NCBI GenBank assembly: GCA_000004695.1
Contig: CM000151.3
Span: forward strand, 7,104,001-7,168,000
Source: Dictyostelium discoideum
Taxonomy: Eukaryota
Length of the DNA: 64,000 nt
Reading direction: 5' to 3'
Every line of letters starts with the position of its first letter. The stretch's first letter is position 1. Of the stretch, positions 13,038 through 47,176 are shown in pieces. The notes under the pieces are model-generated. The model saw only the letters and a program-made list of their open reading frames with translations. It did not search any database and had not been told where the DNA came from. Position numbers and translations under genes: made by a program.

Positions 13038-13484
13038 TTTGTTTTGATAATTATTAGTAATTGAGGGTGTGGGTGTGTTAAAAAATAAAAAAATAATGAG
13101 GAAAAAGTGTTTATATAAAAATCAATTTAAAAAAAATAAAAATAAAAACAAAAACAAAAATAAAAAAAAAAATAAAAAAAAAAAAATAAAAAATAAAAAA
13201 AAAAAATAAAATTAAAATAAAATTTGTTTTTTATTAATTTTAAAAAAAAAAAAATTATAAAAATGGATTTTGAAATTTACTGTCAATTTATTTTCAAATT
13301 GAGCCATGAATAGAAAAAAAAAAAAAAAAAAAAAAAAATAAAAAAAAAAAAAATAAAAAAAAATTTTAGAAAATTGGTTTTTTTAGTAAACTTGAATATT
13401 TTTTTTTTTTTCTTATGAGTTTTTAAGATAATGTAAAAAAAAAAAAAAAGAAATTATTATTCAAGTTTATTAAAAAATGAATTT

Positions 13485-17677: not shown

Positions 17678-18640
17678 TTTTTTTTTTTTTTTTTTTTTTT
17701 TTATGAGTAGTTGGTGTTATATGAGCAGTATGGTATGAAGTGTTCCGGGATGTTTATGGTCATGAGTTTCGAGTTCCAGTTGTGGCTGAATTTTTCGAGT
17801 CTTCTTTTTATTGATGCGGTCCGATTGATTGACTCTCGGTTATCAGTGCATCTTAGTTCTTGACGTAGTTGTTTTTCTACTATCTTTCTTGTTCTATCCC
17901 ATTCGGCATCTCTCGCTTTTTTGATTTTATGAATTATTTGGTTCTCTGTTATTATTGTAGTGTTATCGTTGAATTTTATTTGATTTCTTCTGTACCATAT
18001 CGATTCCATAATGGCTCCTATCAGATTTGATGAGAATGGTGTGAGTAGTTTTCCGAGAACTTTTTCGCTCCATGGACCGTGGTAAGTGTTGTTGGAGTCT
18101 TTACAGACCTTTTGATAGATTGAGTCGATATTCTGTTTTATTGATTTGCATTCGAAGAAGATGTGCATAGACGATTCTTCTTCTTTACATGAGTGGCAAT
18201 TCTCCCCATGGTGTTTTGAAAGTGCCTTGAGTAGATATCTCCATGCTAAGTCTCTTCCTTTGATAGTTGTGATTGATCTGGCTTCTCTAAATGGTAGAAT
18301 TGGGTGATTAATGTTCTTTTGAATCAGTTTTTGACCTGTTGTTGGCTGGTGTTTGTTCCATCCCTTGTATTTGATATCCATCATGTTTCTATAGATTACT
18401 TTTAATTTTTGTTTGTTTTCGTATTTGGGTTTGACTTGGTTTAGTTTGAGAGTTATTCGCTCTCTTGGGTGGTGCAACAACTTCCAGGCTTTCCAGCATT
18501 TGATGTGAATCCTTGATAGTGAGTTTTCTTTTTCCGACTTCCAGACTTCCATATGTGGAGGGCAGTTCTGGTCGTCTTTTTCTCTGAGGTATTGTTCGTA
18601 TATCCATGCTTTCTGGGCATTGGATCTGGTTGCCATATTC
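17678..18640 (-). mobile_element. 5'-truncated non-LTR retrotransposon fragment (TRE5/DRE-like ORF2 C-terminus with CCHC-type Cys/His motif and A-tail)
   Basis: The 311-aa minus-strand ORF 17701..18636 is not AT-biased and contains HSCKEEESSMHIFFECKSIK, a Zn-knuckle-like motif found at the end of ORF2. Its 3' end is followed by A23 (T-run 17678..17700 on top). Its 5' end lies about 60 bp from the 5' end of tRNA-Ala, the classic TRE5 target position. Confidence 0.55.
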
Positions 18641-18698: not shown

Positions 18699-18771
18699 GG
18701 GGATGTAGCTCAGATGGTAGAGCGCTCGCTTAGCATGCGAGAGGTAAAGGGATCGATACCCTTCTTCTCCA
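18699..18771 (+). tRNA. tRNA-Ala (anticodon AGC)
   Basis: GGGGATGTAGCTCAGATGGTAGAGCGCTCGCTTAGCATGCGAGAGGTAAAGGGATCGATACCCTTCTTCTCCA folds as a cloverleaf. It has the G3:U70 Ala identity pair, anticodon loop TTAGCAT, and A-box TAGCTCAGATGG and B-box GGATCGATACC. There is one T:T mismatch at 6:67. Confidence 0.8.
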
Positions 18772-19869
18772 TTAAATTTCTAGAGAAATTAAGATCGCTA
18801 GTTCGATTCCACTAGGAACTTACACTAAGATATTGAAACTCGGTAAATCACTATATTTGTTATTTAGAATTTATATCCGATTTTTGGGTTGTGTATTTTA
18901 ATGGATAAACGATCAATATTAAAAAAAAAAAAAAAATTTCCTATCCAGAACCCTAGAATAAACAAACATAATGGTTTTAATTTCCAACATCTGGGTTTGG
19001 ATCTGCAATGGACAGTATAGTCACCATCAAGTCTCCTTCGACCAATTTTTTGGGTAGTAACAATTTTATTATTTGATCAATCAACTGGATATTTAAAAAA
19101 AATAATAAAAAAAAAAATTATAATAATAACAGTACTATATTTTAAAATTAAAAGTATCTATTTATTTTAAATGTTTTATAATGTGTTTTATTATTTAAAA
19201 TTTTTTTTTTTATTATTATTGTTTTGCCTTTTATTACTTTCTTTAATTTTTGATTTTTAACCTTGGAAAAAAAAGTGAACAAATTTAATTGGACTAAATT
19301 ATTTGTTACTAAAACTTAAATTACTTTTTTTTTTTTATTATGTAGGACTATTAATTTTGTTTTATTTATTGAAAAAAGTAGCTTTTTCCAAAATTTTTTT
19401 TTTTTTTTTTTAAAAGTCCCAGTGTCATAATTTTTATTTTTTTAAATTTTTTTTTTTTTTTTATTTTTTTTTTTTTTTTTTTGCAAATAGTTATATATCA
19501 TATTACACAAATTGATTTAAAAAAAAAAAAAAAAAAAATTTAAAAAATTAAACACCCCCTATAGTGGTTTTTTTTTTTATTTATTTATTTAATTTTTCAA
19601 TTATTCATATAATTCACTCGATATTGTAACTTTTATTTCATTTTTTCATTTTTTTTTTAAATTTAATTTTTTTTTTTTTTAATAAAATTAATTTTTTATA
19701 TACATTTTAATTTTTTTATTTTTTATTTTTTTATTTTTTTTTTATTCATACCCCTTTATCTAAACGACTCACCCATATACAACAAAATTCATAATAATAA
19801 AAAAAAAAAAAAAAAAAAATAAAATAATAAAAAAAAAAAAAATCAACTTATTAATTGTTATTTTATATT

Positions 19870-39861: not shown

Positions 39862-40625
39862 ATGACAAACAACAATTTAAATAAAGAAGGTAATTATTTA
39901 TTAAATAAAAATAAAAAAATAAAAAAAAAAATAAAAGTTTAAATTATTAATTTTTTAATTACATATATATGTTTTAATTAGTTAATCATTTAGAAAAAGA
40001 AGCAGTATCAGCATATGATAATACAAAAGAAGCAACAATTAATGCATACAATGCAACAACAAATGCAGTGAGTGATGGTATGAAATATGTTGGTGATTCA
40101 TTATCATCAGCAGTCGAAGTAACAAAAGATGCAACAATCAATATGTATAATGCAACAACTAATGCAGTGAGTGATGGTTATGAATCTTTAAAATCAAAAA
40201 CAAATGAATTAATCAGCAATACTCAAAATGAAAATGAAAATTTAAAAGATGGTGCTTCAAAGAAAATCGAAGAATTAAAAGATAAATCAAGTGAAGTAAA
40301 AGATAATTTAAAGGGAAAAGGTGAAGAACTAGTTGACGATGCTAAAGATGCTGCTCATAATGCTTCAAATAAATTGAATAATGCTAAAGATCAAGTTTCT
40401 GATAAAATGGATAATGTAAAAGATGATATAAAGAAAAAAGGTGAAGAAATAGTTGACAATTCTAAAGATGCTGCCAATAATACTTCAAATAAAATGAATA
40501 ATGTTAAAGATCAAGTTTCTGATAAAATGGAACATGTAAAACATGATATATCAAATAAATACAATGAAACAAAAACAGAAGCTTCCCATAAACTAAATCA
40601 AGCTGCAAATAAAATCGACCAATAA
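39862..40625 (+). CDS. LEA/apolipophorin-like hydrophilic repeat protein, array copy 1 (2 exons, about 223 aa)
   Basis: Exon 1 39862..39889 (MTNNNLNKE plus G; donor GT at 39890) and exon 2 39982..40625. The product continues VNHLEKEAVSAYDNTKEATINAYNATTNAVSDGMKYVGDSLSS... with about 40-aa repeats (KDAAHNASNKLNNAKDQVSDKMDNVKDDIKKKGEEIVD). Confidence 0.65.
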
Positions 40626-40840
40626 TTTTAAAATTAAAAATAAATTAAAGAAAAAAAAAAAGATTTAAAAAAATTAATTACACCTGTATTTATAGATTTT
40701 TATTTTTTTTAAATTTTTTCCAAAATTATCTTTTTTGAAAATCAATGTTTTTTAATTTTTTTTTTTTTTTTTTTAATTTTTAGTGTGAGATTTCCCATCC
40801 AAACTTTTTTTTTTTATTTTTTTTTTTTTTACAAAATAAT

Positions 40841-40924
40841 TATGTGTGCCGGGTTTCGATCCCGGGAATCGGTTAACGAAATGAAGCCCTGAACGTCACG
40901 CAATAACCACTCTGCCACACACTT
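40841..40924 (-). tRNA. tRNA-like gene with a long variable arm (type II; anticodon loop TTCAGGG, so Leu-CAG-like); imperfect stems, possibly a pseudogene
   Basis: The minus strand reads AAGTGTGTGGCAGAGTGGTTATTGCGTGACGTTCAGGGCTTCATTTCGTTAACCGATTCCCGGGATCGAAACCCGGCACACATA. It has A-box TGGCAGAGTGG, a T-arm CCGGG-ATCGAAA-CCCGG, a 16-nt variable arm, one A:A mismatch in the acceptor stem and one C:T mismatch in the anticodon stem. Confidence 0.45.
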
Positions 40925-41277
40925 AATTTTTTTTTTTTTTTTTTTAAATCGAAATTTTTATTATTTTTTTTTTCCAGATTATTTCTACTTAATCTTAGAA
41001 TCTTTGAGTTTTTTGGGAAATAAAAAAATAGTCAACAACCTCTCTTTTATATTAAATGAAAAAAAAAATTTCTAATTAATGGTTTTTAAGTTTAAATTCA
41101 ACATTAATTTTGGCAATCCAAAAAAAAAAAAAAAATTAATTTTTATTATTATTAGAAAAAAAAAAAAAAAATTTTTATTATTATTTTTTATTTAAATTTA
41201 ATTCGTTTATTTAATTTATAATAAAAAGTCGCCCAAATATATTAATGTTTTGTTTTGTTTTTTTTCTTTTTTTTTTT

Positions 41278-41517
41278 TCAATAATTTACAAAGTTTGGTC
41301 TTGTAAAAAATGATGATGCACTTATCAATGCAATTGTATCATTTGATTGATTGATTGAATTATTTAAATTATTTGAGATCGATGAATCACTTTTTGAAGA
41401 TGATTTAAATGAGAATGAAATTAATGATTCTAAATAATTTTTAAAAAAAAAGTTAATTAATAATTATTCATTGGAAAATAAAAAAATTATTGTTTAGAAA
41501 TACATACTGAATAACAT
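41278..41517 (-). CDS. small Ser/Asn-rich protein, MLFK...FFTRPNFVNY family, type-A copy 1 (53 aa)
   Basis: Exon 1 41508..41517 (ATGTTATTCA; donor GTATGT) and exon 2 41278..41429 (acceptor aaattatttag; phase 1). The product is MLFKSLISFSFKSSSKSDSSISNNLNNSINQSNDTIALISASSFFTRPNFVNY. Confidence 0.6.
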
Positions 41518-43001
41518 TTTAGTTTTTATTCTTTATATTAATAGTTTGATATTTAATTTTTAATATTTGTTTCAATTTGATAATGATTATTATTTTTTTT
41601 TTTTTCTATTTATACTTTTTTTTTTTTTACCCCATTTGTTTTTTTTTTTTTTTTTTTTAATTTTATTCTTTTCTAAAAATAACCACACTCTTTATTATAA
41701 TTAAACAATATTAAAAGAGTATTAAAATTAAATTTAAAATTATGTTGTCGACATAAACATTACCTTTTAAAAAATCAAAAATTAAATGTTATCAACATGA
41801 ATGAGATTTATGATTTTGTATTATTATTATTATTATTATTATTATTGGAACAATATTGATATTAATCATTTAAAATTCAAATTAAACCATAGTTTTAATA
41901 ATTATAATTGTTAAAATTATAATTGATATAATTATTAAAACTATGATTTAAAATAAAATAAATAATTTTTTATTTAAGAATAATAAAAGCCTAAATAAAT
42001 AAAAAATTGATTGGATTAATTTCCTTTATTAATTTATTTAATTAAAATAAAATAATTGGTTTTTGGTTTAATGAATTCCTTTATTGATTTTTGTTTGGTT
42101 GGTCGTTTTTAAATATTAATCCACATTGAATAAATAAATTTAAAAATTGGGAAATTATTTAAAGAATTCATATAAATTCTCTAATTAAAATAAAATTTAA
42201 AAACAATAGTTATTATTTTACCGAGATATCATCAAATGAATGTTTTCCAAAATTATAAAAAAAATAAATGTTCATTGTAATTGGATTTAAAAGAGTAGTT
42301 AACTTTGTTTTTTATTTATTTTAATTTTAGTTATTTTTTCAAAAAAACAGTGAGGATTAATTTTTTAAAAAAGAAATGGTAAATTAGAATTTTATCTATT
42401 GAAATGATATCACTTTCAATACATTGAGTTATTTAAAATGATGACATTATTTTTTTAATCATTTGTTTTTTGATTGCTTCATTTATAAATACACCATAAA
42501 TATTCCGTAAAAAACTAATTAATTTTGATAAAAAAAAATGATCTGAATGACATAATTTAAATATAGAAGAATAAATAAAAAAAAAATAATCATTTTTCAA
42601 TGATACTCATGGATTTTATTTTTATTCCCTTTAAAAGATGAGTAATTGAGGATTTTAAATGATTATTTTAATGATGTAAATAATGTTTTCAACTATTATA
42701 TTGAATCAATTTAACAATGATGATAGAATCATACTTTTTTTAGTGTGTAAAATAATAAAAAATATTTAAAAAATAAAAAAAAAAACTTTTTTTAAATCAA
42801 AAGATAATAAAATCATTATCTTGTACTTGTTAGTATCATACTTCTTGATTAAAATTTATTTACTTTATTATTTAACTTGTATGTCAACATAATAATTTTA
42901 CAAAAAAAATTAAATATTCCATATCTCTTGTTTAGGGTTATGTAGTGGTTAAAAATGGTGTAATTATTTAGCGGGGTAAAATAAAAAAAAAGATAAAAAA
43001 A

Positions 43002-43009
43002 AAAAAAAA
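43002..43009 (+). promoter_or_regulatory. TATA box (TATAAATA) about 95 bp upstream of B-type small gene 1
   Basis: gtataaatagaatttt is conserved upstream of all five B copies at the same distance. Confidence 0.4.
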
Positions 43010-43103
43010 AGTATAAATAGAATTTTTATTTTTTTAATTTATTCCAAAATAAAAACCAATTGTTAATTAAATAAATATATATTAAAAAAATCCTAAAAAT
43101 AAA

Positions 43104-43351
43104 ATGTTATTCAGTATGTATTTTAAAAAAAAAAAAAAAAAAAAAAAATTAAAAAACAAAATTCTAATTAATTTATTTTATTATTTATAGAATCAATTAT
43201 TTCATTATCAAATAAATCATCAAATGTTTCATCATCAAAATCATTATTATCAAATGACTCTAATTTAAATTCATTTGATTTTACATGTAATACTGTCTCA
43301 AATAAGAGTTCAACAACATTCTTTACAAGACCAAACTTTGTAAACTATTAA
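43104..43351 (+). CDS. small Ser/Asn-rich protein, MLFK family, type-B copy 1 (56 aa)
   Basis: Exon 1 43104..43113 (ATGTTATTCA; donor GTATGT) and exon 2 43191..43351 (acceptor ttatttatag). The product is MLFKSIISLSNKSSNVSSSKSLLSNDSNLNSFDFTCNTVSNKSSTTFFTRPNFVNY. Confidence 0.6.
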
Positions 43352-44981
43352 AAAAAAAAAAAAAAAATTAAAAATTTTAATTAAAGTACGAACATAAAAA
43401 ACTTATTTATTAAAAATGTACCGACCAAATTTGTAAATAAAATAAAAAAACAATAAAAAACATTTAAAAAAAAAAAAAAAAAAATTTTTTTTTGTTTAAA
43501 TTATTTGTATTTTACTAAAAAAAAAAAAAAAAAATAGAATGAAGTGGATTTTATGATTAATATTTTTTAAATCGATTTTCATTTATTAAACTCTTATATA
43601 AATATAATAATCTATTAAAAATTAAAAAATCTTTTTTTTTTTTTTTATCACATTTTAAAATTATTTATTAATTTAATAAATTTTATTATTGGTATTATTT
43701 TTTTTAATATTAAATTATAAATAAATGATTATTAAATTATTATTATTCATAAGAAAATAATATTATGTTTTGATTTTTTTATAATAAAAAAGGAATAAAT
43801 TATTTAAAAAAATAAAAAATTTTTATTTTGTTGGGTTATATAGTTTTTATAGCCCAATTAAGAATTCATAAGTCATATAGGCCGTGTAGCATTTGTTAAA
43901 TGGACTATAATTATTATATCCCAAATAGTCCTTTTAAAAATTTTACCTGGCTGTGAACATTGTATATTGGGTTCCTTTATTTATTTTTGTTTGGTTGGTA
44001 ATTTCTTTAAAAATATTAATCCATTTTGATCAAATAAATTAAGGAATTGGGAAATATATTAGAGAATTAATTTATATTTTATAATAATTTTATTTTTAAA
44101 TTTATTTTTATTATTTTAAAAAGTTGTCCTCAAATGAAAGTATTTCAAAATTTTTAAAAAAATAATCATTGCAAAAGGAATTTTCTTTAAAAGAGTACTT
44201 TAGTTTTGTTATTAATCTTATTTATATTGATTTTAGTTATTTTAATTATTTTTTAAATAGCCAATGGGATTAGTTTCTTTTTATCTATTGAAATGATCAT
44301 TTTAAATACAATCAATGATTTTATAATGATGATATTATTTGGTCCTTTGTTTTATAATTTCTTCATTTATATATACATCCCTTAAAAATTAAATATTCTT
44401 GATTTAATATATAATCTAATTGATATAATTTAAATAAAAACAAAAAAAAGAAATATAAAAACATCATTTTTCGATGATACTTGTGGGTTATCATTTTTTT
44501 CCCTTTAAAAGATGAGTAATTGAGGACTTTAAATGATTATTTTAATTATGTAAATAATGTTTTCAACTATTTTATTGAATCAATTTAACAATGATGATAG
44601 AATCATATATTTATTTAGTGTCGAAAATAATAAAAAATAAAAAAAAAAAATAAAAAAAAAACTTTTTTAAATCAAAAGATAATGAAATCATAATCTTGTA
44701 CTTGTTAGTATCATACTTCTTGATTAAAATTTATTTACTTTATTATTTAACTTGTATGTCAACATAATAATTTTACAAAAAAATATAATATTCCTTATCT
44801 CTTGTTTAGGGTTCTGTAGTGGTTAAAAATGGGGTAATTATTTAGTGGGGTAAAATAAATAAAAAAAGATAAAAAAAAAATAAAAAAAAAAGTATAAATA
44901 GAATTTTTATTTTTTTAATTTATTCCAAAATAAAAATCAATTGTTAAATAAATAAATATAAATTAAAAAAAACCTAAAAAA

Positions 44982-45229
44982 ATGTTATTCAGTATGTATT
45001 AAATAAAAAAAAAAAAAAAAAATTAAAAAAATAACAAAATTCTAATTAATATATTTTATTATTTTTAGAATCAATTATTTCATTATCAAATAAATCATCA
45101 AATGTTGCATCATCAAAATCATTATTATCAAATGACTCTAATTTAAATTCATTTGATTTTACATGTAATACTGTCTCAAATAAGAGTTCAACAACATTCT
45201 TTACAAGACCAAACTTTGTAAACTATTAA
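44982..45229 (+). CDS. MLFK family type-B copy 2
   Basis: Exons 44982..44991 and 45069..45229. It has the same structure and is near-identical to B1 (NVASSKS variant). Confidence 0.6.
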
Positions 45230-45530
45230 AAAAAAAAAAAAAAACAATTAAAAATTAATTAAAGTGCGAAACATAAAAAAAACTTATTTATTAAAAAGGG
45301 ACCGACCAAATAAAAAAAAAAATTAAAAAAAAAATTTTATTATAAATTTTGTTTAACTTTTTCGTAAATTATTTGTGGATTTTAGTTTTTTTTTTTTTTG
45401 GGCTTTTTCTTTAAATGATTATTTTGTGACTATGATTTATTAAAAAAATTAAAAAAAACAAAAAAAAACATTTTCAAATGAAATTTAAACCATTATAATA
45501 ATATACAACCACTTATTTTTATAAATTTCA

Positions 45531-45564
<34 letters not shown>

Positions 45565-45778
45565 ATAATTATTTTTTATTTGAATAAATAAAATTGTGGT
45601 AAATTTTTTATTACATATTGGTATATAAATAATTTTTTTTAATTGAATTTTAATTAATTATTTTTCATATTTTAAAAAAGATTCAAATAAATAATTTTAT
45701 AATAAAATAAAAAAGAAAGAAAATAATTTATTTGATTTTTTTTTTTTTTTTTTTAATAAAAAATGAAAAAGAAAAAAC

Positions 45779-47076: not shown

Positions 47077-47176
47077 NNNNNNNNNNNNNNNNNNNNNNNN
47101 NNNNNNNNNNNNNNNNNNNNNNNNNNNNNNNNNNNNNNNNNNNNNNNNNNNNNNNNNNNNNNNNNNNNNNNNNNNN
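47077..47176. other. assembly gap (100 N) inside the tandem array
   Basis: A run of N; the flanks correspond to non-adjacent parts of the repeat unit. Confidence 0.95.

Follow-up and report, generated by a model that had tools for sequence, protein, structure and literature searches.

The present analysis of a 64,000-nucleotide stretch of Dictyostelium discoideum DNA (64 kb, hereafter the window) identified the tRNA-shaped sequence found in the first unit of a LEA-like array as LeuCAG-1. This feature was already known: it is an annotated, single-copy and conserved tRNA-Leu(CAG) gene, and it is neither a relic nor a recent insertion. Very probably, LeuCAG-1 is the single nuclear gene for the cytosolic tRNA-Leu(CAG), predicted to be transcribed by RNA polymerase III (Pol III), charged with leucine and used to read the rare CUG codon.

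The identity of the gene was established from its neighbourhood and from published coordinates. The adjacent RCC1-like ORF (646 aa) matches DDB_G0276695 of D. discoideum AX4 with 100% identity. In the S2 Table of Spaller et al. (2017, PLoS One, PMC5391098), AlaAGC-2 is placed at chr2 7122699-7122771 and LeuCAG-1 at chr2 7144841-7144924, that is with a spacing of 22,142 bp. Since the two tRNA genes of the window (18699-18771 and 40841-40924) agree with these entries in length and are likewise offset by 22,142 bp, the second one is LeuCAG-1 and the window corresponds to chr2 7104001-7168000. The LeuCAG-1 gene of the dictyBase set and the tRNA gene of the window are thus one and the same reference locus (84 nt, same anticodon, no difference). 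In the genome-wide table of PMC5391098, a paper that mentions 42 tRNA gene families, "LeuCAG" appears only once and the gene is therefore single-copy. A study from 2026 (PMC13063481) reported 42 anticodons and 407 nuclear tRNA genes in D. discoideum, together with three pseudogenes called by tRNAscan-SE (undetermined, SerTGA and LeuTAA), LeuCAG not being one of them; LeuCAG is named nowhere in the text or supplement of that study. Among the rows listed in the LOTTE-seq modification table of PMC8163159 (TabS3), there is neither a LeuCAG row nor a sequence match to the gene.

The 84-nt type II tRNA was recognized by inspection of the sequence as well as by ARAGORN and by RF00005, the tRNA model of Rfam. 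ARAGORN predicted a tRNA-Leu(CAG) at 40840..40925 on the minus strand. The earlier note on this DNA, which had been made from the letters alone, proposed to run Infernal with RF00005 at the site: searched as a 96-nt slice, the gene gives a full-length match (model positions 1-71, 40841..40924, minus strand) with 32.2 bits, above the gathering score of 29 bits. With the ARAGORN call and the cloverleaf described below, this match indicates that the tRNA-shaped gene is genuine. The gathering search of the whole 64-kb window with default filters gave no match at 40841..40924, and a search of a 351-nt stretch at E<=10 did not detect the site either; these first Rfam searches recovered the tRNA-Ala gene alone (18699..18771, 58.1 bits). 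Since the 96-nt slice reaches 32.2 bits, the earlier misses are losses due to the speed filters in AT-rich DNA and not the result of a failing score. The RF00005 score of LeuCAG-1 is nevertheless only slightly above the threshold (32.2 versus 29 bits).

The complete sequence of the gene is AAGTGTGTGGCAGAGTGGTTATTGCGTGACGTTCAGGGCTTCATTTCGTTAACCGATTCCCGGGATCGAAACCCGGCACACATA, and its parts are listed in Table 1. ARAGORN drew a cloverleaf with stems of 7, 4, 5 and 5 bp in which U8, A14, G18G19, A21, U33, C48, G53:C61, C56, A58 and A73 are in place, the only exception among the conserved tertiary nucleotides being A54 instead of T54. All the structural details that had initially been read from the sequence were recovered: the A box, the T arm (CCGGG/ATCGAAA/CCCGG), the 16-nt variable region (TTTCGTTAACCGATTC), the anticodon loop (TTCAGGG) and one mismatch in each of two stems, A2·A71 in the acceptor stem and C30·U40 in the anticodon stem (UGACG/CUUCA). 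The CAG anticodon, the length of the variable region, the discriminator A73 and G37 together are those of a type II tRNA-Leu. A selenocysteine tRNA, which would read UCA through a shifted loop, was also considered and rejected on inspection because the stem fails to pair in that register.

Table 1. Features of the LeuCAG-1 locus in the window
Feature	Position	Strand	Basis
tRNA-Leu(CAG) gene, LeuCAG-1 (chr2 7144841-7144924)	40841..40924	-	RF00005, ARAGORN, published table coordinates, identity with the second D. discoideum lineage (L002)
Internal Pol III A box TGGCAGAGTGG (tRNA nt 8-18: U8, A14, G18, G19)	40907..40917	-	Sequence; RF00005 consensus alignment
Internal B box GGATCGAAACC (T-arm/T-loop, A54 and A60)	40852..40862	-	2 mismatches to GGTTCGAATCC
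Anticodon CAG (nt 34-36), loop UUCAGGG with U33 and G37	40889..40891	-	ARAGORN, RF00005
C30, opposing U40 (40885): C·U mismatch, anticodon stem	40895	-	A30 of D. citrinum pairs with U40
A2, opposing A71 (40843): acceptor-stem mismatch	40923	-	Common to all three lineages; "v" in the NC line
16-nt type II variable region UUUCGUUAACCGAUUC, 3-bp stem and 5-nt loop	40866..40881	-	ARAGORN fold
T4 run, +5 to +8 past the tRNA 3' end, candidate Pol III terminator	40833..40836	-	Kept in L002 and D. citrinum
5' flank (TAATAAAAATTTCGATTT-A(n)-TTAA), near-invariant between the two D. discoideum lineages	40925..40975	-	Alignment
Unit-1-specific DNA around the tRNA gene, ~415 bp	~40682..~41095	.	Missing in the LEA-to-A spacers of units 2-5

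The candidate Pol III type 2 signals of LeuCAG-1 consist of the A box, the B box (with two mismatches) and the T4 run. No external B box was found when up to three mismatches were allowed in the ~240 nt downstream of the gene; the tRNA-Ala gene of the same window has one (AGTTCGATTCC) at +29. The external B box is common in Dictyostelium tRNA genes transcribed by Pol III but it is not obligatory. Judging from its near-invariance, the 5' flank (40925..40975) is likely to be the region of TFIIIB binding and of the start site.

The syntenic loci of four other lineages were reached through their RCC1 orthologues: a second D. discoideum lineage (L002, RCC1 95% identical), D. citrinum (L003), D. firmibasis (L004) and D. 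purpureum (L005). The tRNA-Leu(CAG) gene is located downstream of the first LEA copy in both L002 and D. citrinum. Neither a copy nor a remnant of it was found at the syntenic site of D. firmibasis, and no tRNA was found in D. purpureum, whose contig stops ~1 kb past the RCC1 gene. The gene was therefore either gained in the common ancestor of D. discoideum and D. citrinum or lost in D. firmibasis.

In the alignment of AX4 with L002, all 84 nt of the tRNA gene are identical, whereas 78 of the 493 aligned columns of the flanks are substituted (15.8%) and these flanks also contain 14 indel runs; if a uniform rate is assumed, the probability of observing zero changes in 84 nt at the rate of the flanks is P ~5e-7. 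The conserved block extends ~30 nt downstream and ~50 nt upstream of the gene (161 identities, four substitutions and five gap columns over 40811-40975). The comparison with D. citrinum shows four substitutions and one gap in the 84 nt (~95% identity), against flanks that are 69% identical, which is near chance for AT-rich DNA; counting substitutions and gap columns, there are 5/84 differences in the tRNA gene versus 38/106 in the flanks. The differences from D. citrinum are confined to nt 30 and to the variable arm, whose 3-bp stem is kept despite four changes, and the D. citrinum orthologue scores 37.0 bits with RF00005 versus 32.2 in AX4. Since A30 of D. citrinum pairs with U40, the C30·U40 mismatch is derived in D. 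discoideum. The A2·A71 mismatch is common to D. citrinum and is therefore old and tolerated.

These comparisons do not support the suggestion of the earlier note that the sequence may be a decaying tRNA: in both of them, the gene carries fewer changes than its flanks, as expected under purifying selection. A pseudogene in slow decay would imply that the sole LeuCAG gene is made non-functional by A2·A71 and C30·U40 and that CUG is read by tRNA-Leu(UAG) through U:G wobble. The two stem mismatches, of which C30·U40 arose in D. discoideum, the marginal RF00005 score and the absence of an external B box within ~240 nt downstream are in line with such an interpretation. However, no further change was fixed after C30 in the two D. 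discoideum lineages while their flanks diverged by ~16% and accumulated many indels, and this pattern, as read from the alignments, is the opposite of what neutral decay would produce. Moreover, the acceptor-stem mismatch already existed when the D. discoideum and D. citrinum lineages separated, none of the invariant tertiary positions is disrupted (position 54 being an A) and LeuCAG is outside the three pseudogenes called by tRNAscan-SE in PMC13063481. A non-functional LeuCAG-1 is thus considered unlikely.

The position of the gene in the LEA-like array is also informative. The earlier note correctly recognized this array but described five units; the self-comparison of the window revealed six LEA-like copies (stop-codon equivalents at 40625, 46633, 48462, 52107, 55852 and 59630). 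The difference in spacer length that it had reported holds, with 653 bp in unit 1 versus 170-270 bp in the others when measured to 41278: with the equivalent of 41200, a landmark of the "A" block, as its end point, the spacer that follows the LEA stop spans 574 bp in unit 1 and 91, 94, 193 and 161 bp in the four units after it. The limits of the DNA specific to unit 1 (~40682 to ~41095) were set relative to units 4 and 5. That the tRNA gene is present in unit 1 only is also confirmed, as a search for its T-arm motif in the 64 kb gives a single occurrence, even with three mismatches permitted, and the ~415 bp of extra DNA are missing from units 2-5.

The alignment of all LEA copies distinguishes two types of introns. 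The LEA gene of unit 1 has an a-type intron, starting with GGTAATTAT, that is also found in the first copy of L002; the introns of the first LEA copies of D. citrinum and D. firmibasis begin in the same way. The LEA genes of units 2-6 have a b-type intron, starting with GGTTGGTAT, that is also found in the second copy of L002. According to this distribution, the a and b types diverged before the two D. discoideum lineages separated and probably also before the species did. In every lineage carrying it, the tRNA-Leu(CAG) gene adjoins the a-type LEA copy. On the basis of their introns, the tRNA-free units 2-6 are thus later amplifications of the b-type paralogue, which was never adjacent to the tRNA gene. 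As the paralogue type of unit 1 is older than that of units 2-6, an insertion after amplification is unnecessary to explain its presence in this unit only. The proposal that the tRNA gene arrived after the array had been amplified is therefore not supported: D. citrinum and L002 carry the gene in the corresponding position, and it adjoins a LEA copy with an a-type intron as opposed to the b-type introns of the other units.

A related scenario would be that of a SINE-like, tRNA-derived mobile or retroposed element inserted into unit 1 after amplification of the array. It would account for the ~415 bp of extra DNA found in this unit only, for the A-rich and T-rich runs located beside the tRNA gene and for a weak 20-nt likeness between the edges of the extra DNA. 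This likeness was the only trace obtained when a direct repeat or target-site duplication was searched for at these edges; it is of low complexity and was matched by 14/500 shuffles, and it was consequently dropped as a sign of either insertion or deletion. In addition, A and T runs are ordinary in a window with 21% G+C, and a mobile family is at odds with the single copy in the window and the single LeuCAG entry genome-wide. D. citrinum and L002 both have this gene at the corresponding site, and unit 1 is of the older paralogue type. Furthermore, a metagenome scan with the pattern GGCAGAGTGGTT-N(35-60)-GGGATCGAAACCC returned 0 matches. Such an insertion is thus extremely unlikely. Overall, the locus has the properties of neither a tRNA pseudogene nor a SINE-like repeat: it shows no decay relative to its flanks, a single copy, no significant flanking repeat and no metagenome relatives.

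The earlier note described tRNA genes as landing pads for retroelements, and its idea that this gene can bring such elements into the array is supported. In D. citrinum, ~700 bp that are missing in AX4 separate the LEA stop from the tRNA gene. This DNA includes an ORF tail on the strand of the tRNA gene (L003 13831-13526), three tandem modules of ~110 bp (13158-13470) and an A run. The ORF tail belongs to a family that is multicopy in both D. citrinum and D. discoideum, whose longer members extend upstream into a Cys/His-rich motif. One AX4 copy, DDB_G0292938, is 94% identical and lies ~110 bp downstream of a tRNA-Cys gene in the same orientation, followed by one module and a poly(A). The D. 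citrinum sequence has the same arrangement as this copy and corresponds to a 5'-truncated non-LTR element located ~70 bp downstream of the tRNA-Leu(CAG) gene. A Pfam search of its ORF gave no meaningful match. The position and structure of TRE3 non-LTR elements downstream of tRNA genes have been described (PMC5006619), and by these two features the D. citrinum element is TRE3-like. In D. discoideum, one read of an engineered TRE5-A element (TRE5-Absr) was found at LeuCAG-1, in the adapter library, the sole library able to detect it (PMC5391098). As a single read, it is very weak evidence, and its being the only one would also suit a pseudogene. Taken as a whole, the targeting by retroelements suggests that LeuCAG-1 carries a Pol III transcription complex.

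The comparison with the tRNA-Leu set of D. discoideum, which had been proposed in the earlier note, was carried out with the sequences listed in TabS3 of PMC8163159. LeuCAG-1 shares 58-59% identity with the other Leu isoacceptors listed, which are 60-64% identical among themselves; it is therefore an old and separate isoacceptor rather than a chimera or a recent copy of another family. An origin from a mitochondrial tRNA-Leu, through a nuclear copy of mitochondrial DNA, was rejected as the identity is just 52-54%. According to the same rows, LeuAAG, LeuUAG and LeuUAA share with LeuCAG-1 the type II variable arm, A73 and G37, and the D-loop of LeuUAG resembles that of LeuCAG-1 (AGTGGTTA). These isoacceptors, as listed, have G1:C72, fully paired stems, a T-loop TTCGAAT/C and a consensus B box GGTTCGAA(T/C)CC, whereas LeuCAG-1 has A1:U72, A2·A71, C30·U40, G38 and an ATCGAAA T-loop. 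They also form multicopy families, unlike the single-copy LeuCAG-1. Both G38 and A1:U72 are odd for an elongator tRNA-Leu.

Some of these peculiarities recall the initiator tRNA-Met of D. discoideum (iMetCAT), whose sequence, as given in the rows listed in PMC8163159, has A1:U72, A54, A60 and an identical GGATCGAAACC. Despite these shared nucleotides, LeuCAG-1 does not qualify as a eukaryotic initiator tRNA: its anticodon is CAG and not CAU, its variable arm is of 16 nt versus 5 nt, and its anticodon stem is devoid of the three consecutive G:C pairs of initiators (29-31:39-41). Furthermore, in the listed part of the same supplement, the expressed and multicopy elongator tRNA-Ala(AGC), one copy of which is in the window, has a T-loop ATCGATA and hence A54 and A60, and tRNA-Asp starts with U1:A72. 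The presence of A54 and A60 in tRNA-Ala(AGC) indicates that an AUCGAAA T-loop is not specific to initiators in D. discoideum. Therefore, the combination of a type II arm and an AUCGAAA T-loop that the earlier note had pointed out is real, but the "hybrid" label attached to it is not justified.

LeuCAG-1 could also be a specialised tRNA, in which A2·A71 is repaired by cytosolic 5' editing or in which A1:U72 and A54/A60 serve a role at CUG starts. DdiTLP3 edits such mismatches in mitochondrial tRNAs of D. discoideum. Position 2 is one of the first three positions of the acceptor stem, where 5' editing acts in these mitochondrial tRNAs, and the substrates of DdiTLP4, a cytosolic 3'-5' polymerase, are incompletely known (PMC5041481). 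The mismatch, which is older than the separation from D. citrinum and has been kept, might be converted from A2 to U2 by DdiTLP4. As a weaker variant of this scenario, the A1:U72 pair and the A54/A60 T-loop, the latter with the exact B box of the listed initiator sequence, might serve leucine initiation at CUG. Neither feature is diagnostic, however, given the listed tRNA-Ala(AGC) and tRNA-Asp sequences, the three G:C pairs typical of initiators are missing from the anticodon stem, and the whole scenario is pure inference. A specialised role, including repair by 5' editing, is therefore regarded as highly improbable. If editing did occur, LeuCAG-1 would be the first nuclear-encoded tRNA substrate of a pathway shown so far for mitochondrial tRNAs only.

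A role as an ordinary elongator tRNA is expected from the features described above. RNA polymerase III would transcribe LeuCAG-1 from the internal A box (TGGCAGAGTGG) and B box (GGATCGAAACC), and the transcript would end at the T4 run, 5 nt downstream of the tRNA. End processing and CCA addition would then yield the 84-nt type II tRNA, to which leucine would be attached and which would decode CUG, a very rare codon. A73 and G37, together with the long variable arm, are in keeping with leucine identity, as they correspond to identity elements of eukaryotic LeuRS. Transcription, leucylation and CUG decoding are thus predicted from the sequence of the gene and of its relatives. In the long ORFs of the window, CTG represents 5/711 Leu codons (0.59 per thousand codons), indicating a tiny demand that fits with a single gene. 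This low demand perhaps also fits with the tolerance of a weakened stem.

The closest known parallel is the single-copy tRNA-Gln(CUG) gene of D. discoideum, which can be deleted (PMC7430636). Like LeuCAG-1, it encodes, in an AT-rich genome, a C34 isoacceptor whose G-ending codon is very rare, and both are likely to be partially redundant with a U34 isoacceptor. By analogy with the deletable tRNA-Gln(CUG), a partial redundancy of LeuCAG-1 with tRNA-Leu(UAG) is plausible. The extreme rarity of CUG and the deletability of tRNA-Gln(CUG) would also be compatible with a LeuCAG pseudogene. Both expression and deletability were demonstrated for tRNA-Gln(CUG), whereas the expression of LeuCAG-1 is predicted.

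As an annotated housekeeping gene, LeuCAG-1 is a clean negative for a genome scan and calls for no new explanation. It nevertheless illustrates that a low-scoring tRNA may be real, since this one combines two mismatches and an atypical T-loop with strong purifying selection. Stem mismatches alone should therefore not be counted as decay. It should also be emphasized that, in very AT-rich DNA, the default filters of Infernal can silently lose a valid tRNA that scores above the threshold.

If LeuCAG-1 turned out to be unexpressed or edited at its 5' end, this would bear on the reading of CUG in D. discoideum and on the role of DdiTLP4. In the LEA-like array, LeuCAG-1 is a fixed landmark between the old first paralogue and the amplified units. 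The D. citrinum gene has already drawn a TRE3-like element and has thereby brought mobile DNA into the LEA array.

In Dictyostelium citrinum, about 700 bp lie between the LEA stop codon and the orthologue of the tRNA-Leu(CAG) gene, and this DNA has no counterpart in AX4. It begins ~70 bp downstream of the tRNA-Leu(CAG) orthologue and agrees in both position and structure with TRE3-type elements, which argues that, judging from sequence, the LEA array of this sister species has already been invaded by a retroelement through the tRNA-Leu(CAG) gene.

Coordinates of the features in AX4 (window and L006, the locus carrying a tRNA-Cys) and in the syntenic loci of D. citrinum (L003) and D. firmibasis (L004)
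Feature	Location	Strand	Description
Extra DNA, ~700 bp	L003 13140-13831		Tail of a non-LTR ORF truncated at its 5' end, three ~110-bp modules in tandem, A run
ACTFIV_002048 (P0121)	L003 13526-14401	minus	Annotated 107-aa "hypothetical protein"
RRM-like remnant	L003 14330-14400		GFSDTTTEQDVRDAFSKFG
RRM-domain genes	L004 13428-13761 and 15572-15952
DDB_G0292938 (P0122)	L006 3001-3324		Annotated 107-aa "hypothetical protein"
311-aa ORF	window 17701-18636	minus	Adjoins tRNA-Ala(AGC) at 18699-18771
Candidate external B box of tRNA-Ala(AGC)	window 18800-18810		B-box-like AGTTCGATTCC
LEA-like array	window 39600-59700
"LEA" ORF	window 40068-40625
LeuCAG-1, single-copy tRNA-Leu(CAG)	window 40841-40924	minus
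"A" block	window 41100-45650
Assembly gap	window 47077-47176		100 N, within unit 2

Two annotated proteins, ACTFIV_002048 from D. citrinum and DDB_G0292938 from AX4, look in their sequences like retroelement ORF2 tails rather than host genes. The intron of the former gene model spans the tRNA-Leu gene, and the latter is placed ~110 bp downstream of tRNA-Cys(GCA). Their annotation as host genes is probably erroneous.

The 311-aa ORF of the window, which has a raised G+C content (about 37%) and carries the Cys/His motif CHSCKEEESSMHIFFEC, starts ~62 bp upstream of tRNA-Ala(AGC) and reads away from it, a layout expected of a 5'-truncated TRE5-type element. An exact look-up of its protein found no identical entry in the protein collection. 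The B-box-like sequence is located 29 nt downstream of tRNA-Ala(AGC), unlike the case of LeuCAG-1, for which no external B box was found within 240 nt.

The array comprises six LEA-like copies with two intron types, a-type (unit 1) and b-type (units 2-6); unit 5 displays a deletion and unit 6 an additional in-frame repeat block of ~117 nt. Within any one species, concerted evolution seems to have homogenised the coding regions of the copies. The "LEA" ORF exceeds the Pfam threshold for YtxH-like (PF12732, 42.6 bits) and has weak matches of apolipoprotein type, while no named LEA family is present among its Pfam matches: "LEA" is a descriptive label rather than a family assignment. The RRM-domain genes of D. 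firmibasis lie between LEA copies, and the RRM-like remnant of D. citrinum lies beyond the tRNA. The AX4 "A" block, which follows the LEA-to-A spacer, is devoid of any ORF of at least 60 aa and may be a decayed RRM gene.

With default or moderately relaxed filters, cmscan lost LeuCAG-1 despite a score above the Rfam gathering threshold, and recovered it only when less than 100 nt were searched. In AT-rich genomes, low-scoring tRNAs can thus escape cmscan through filter loss.
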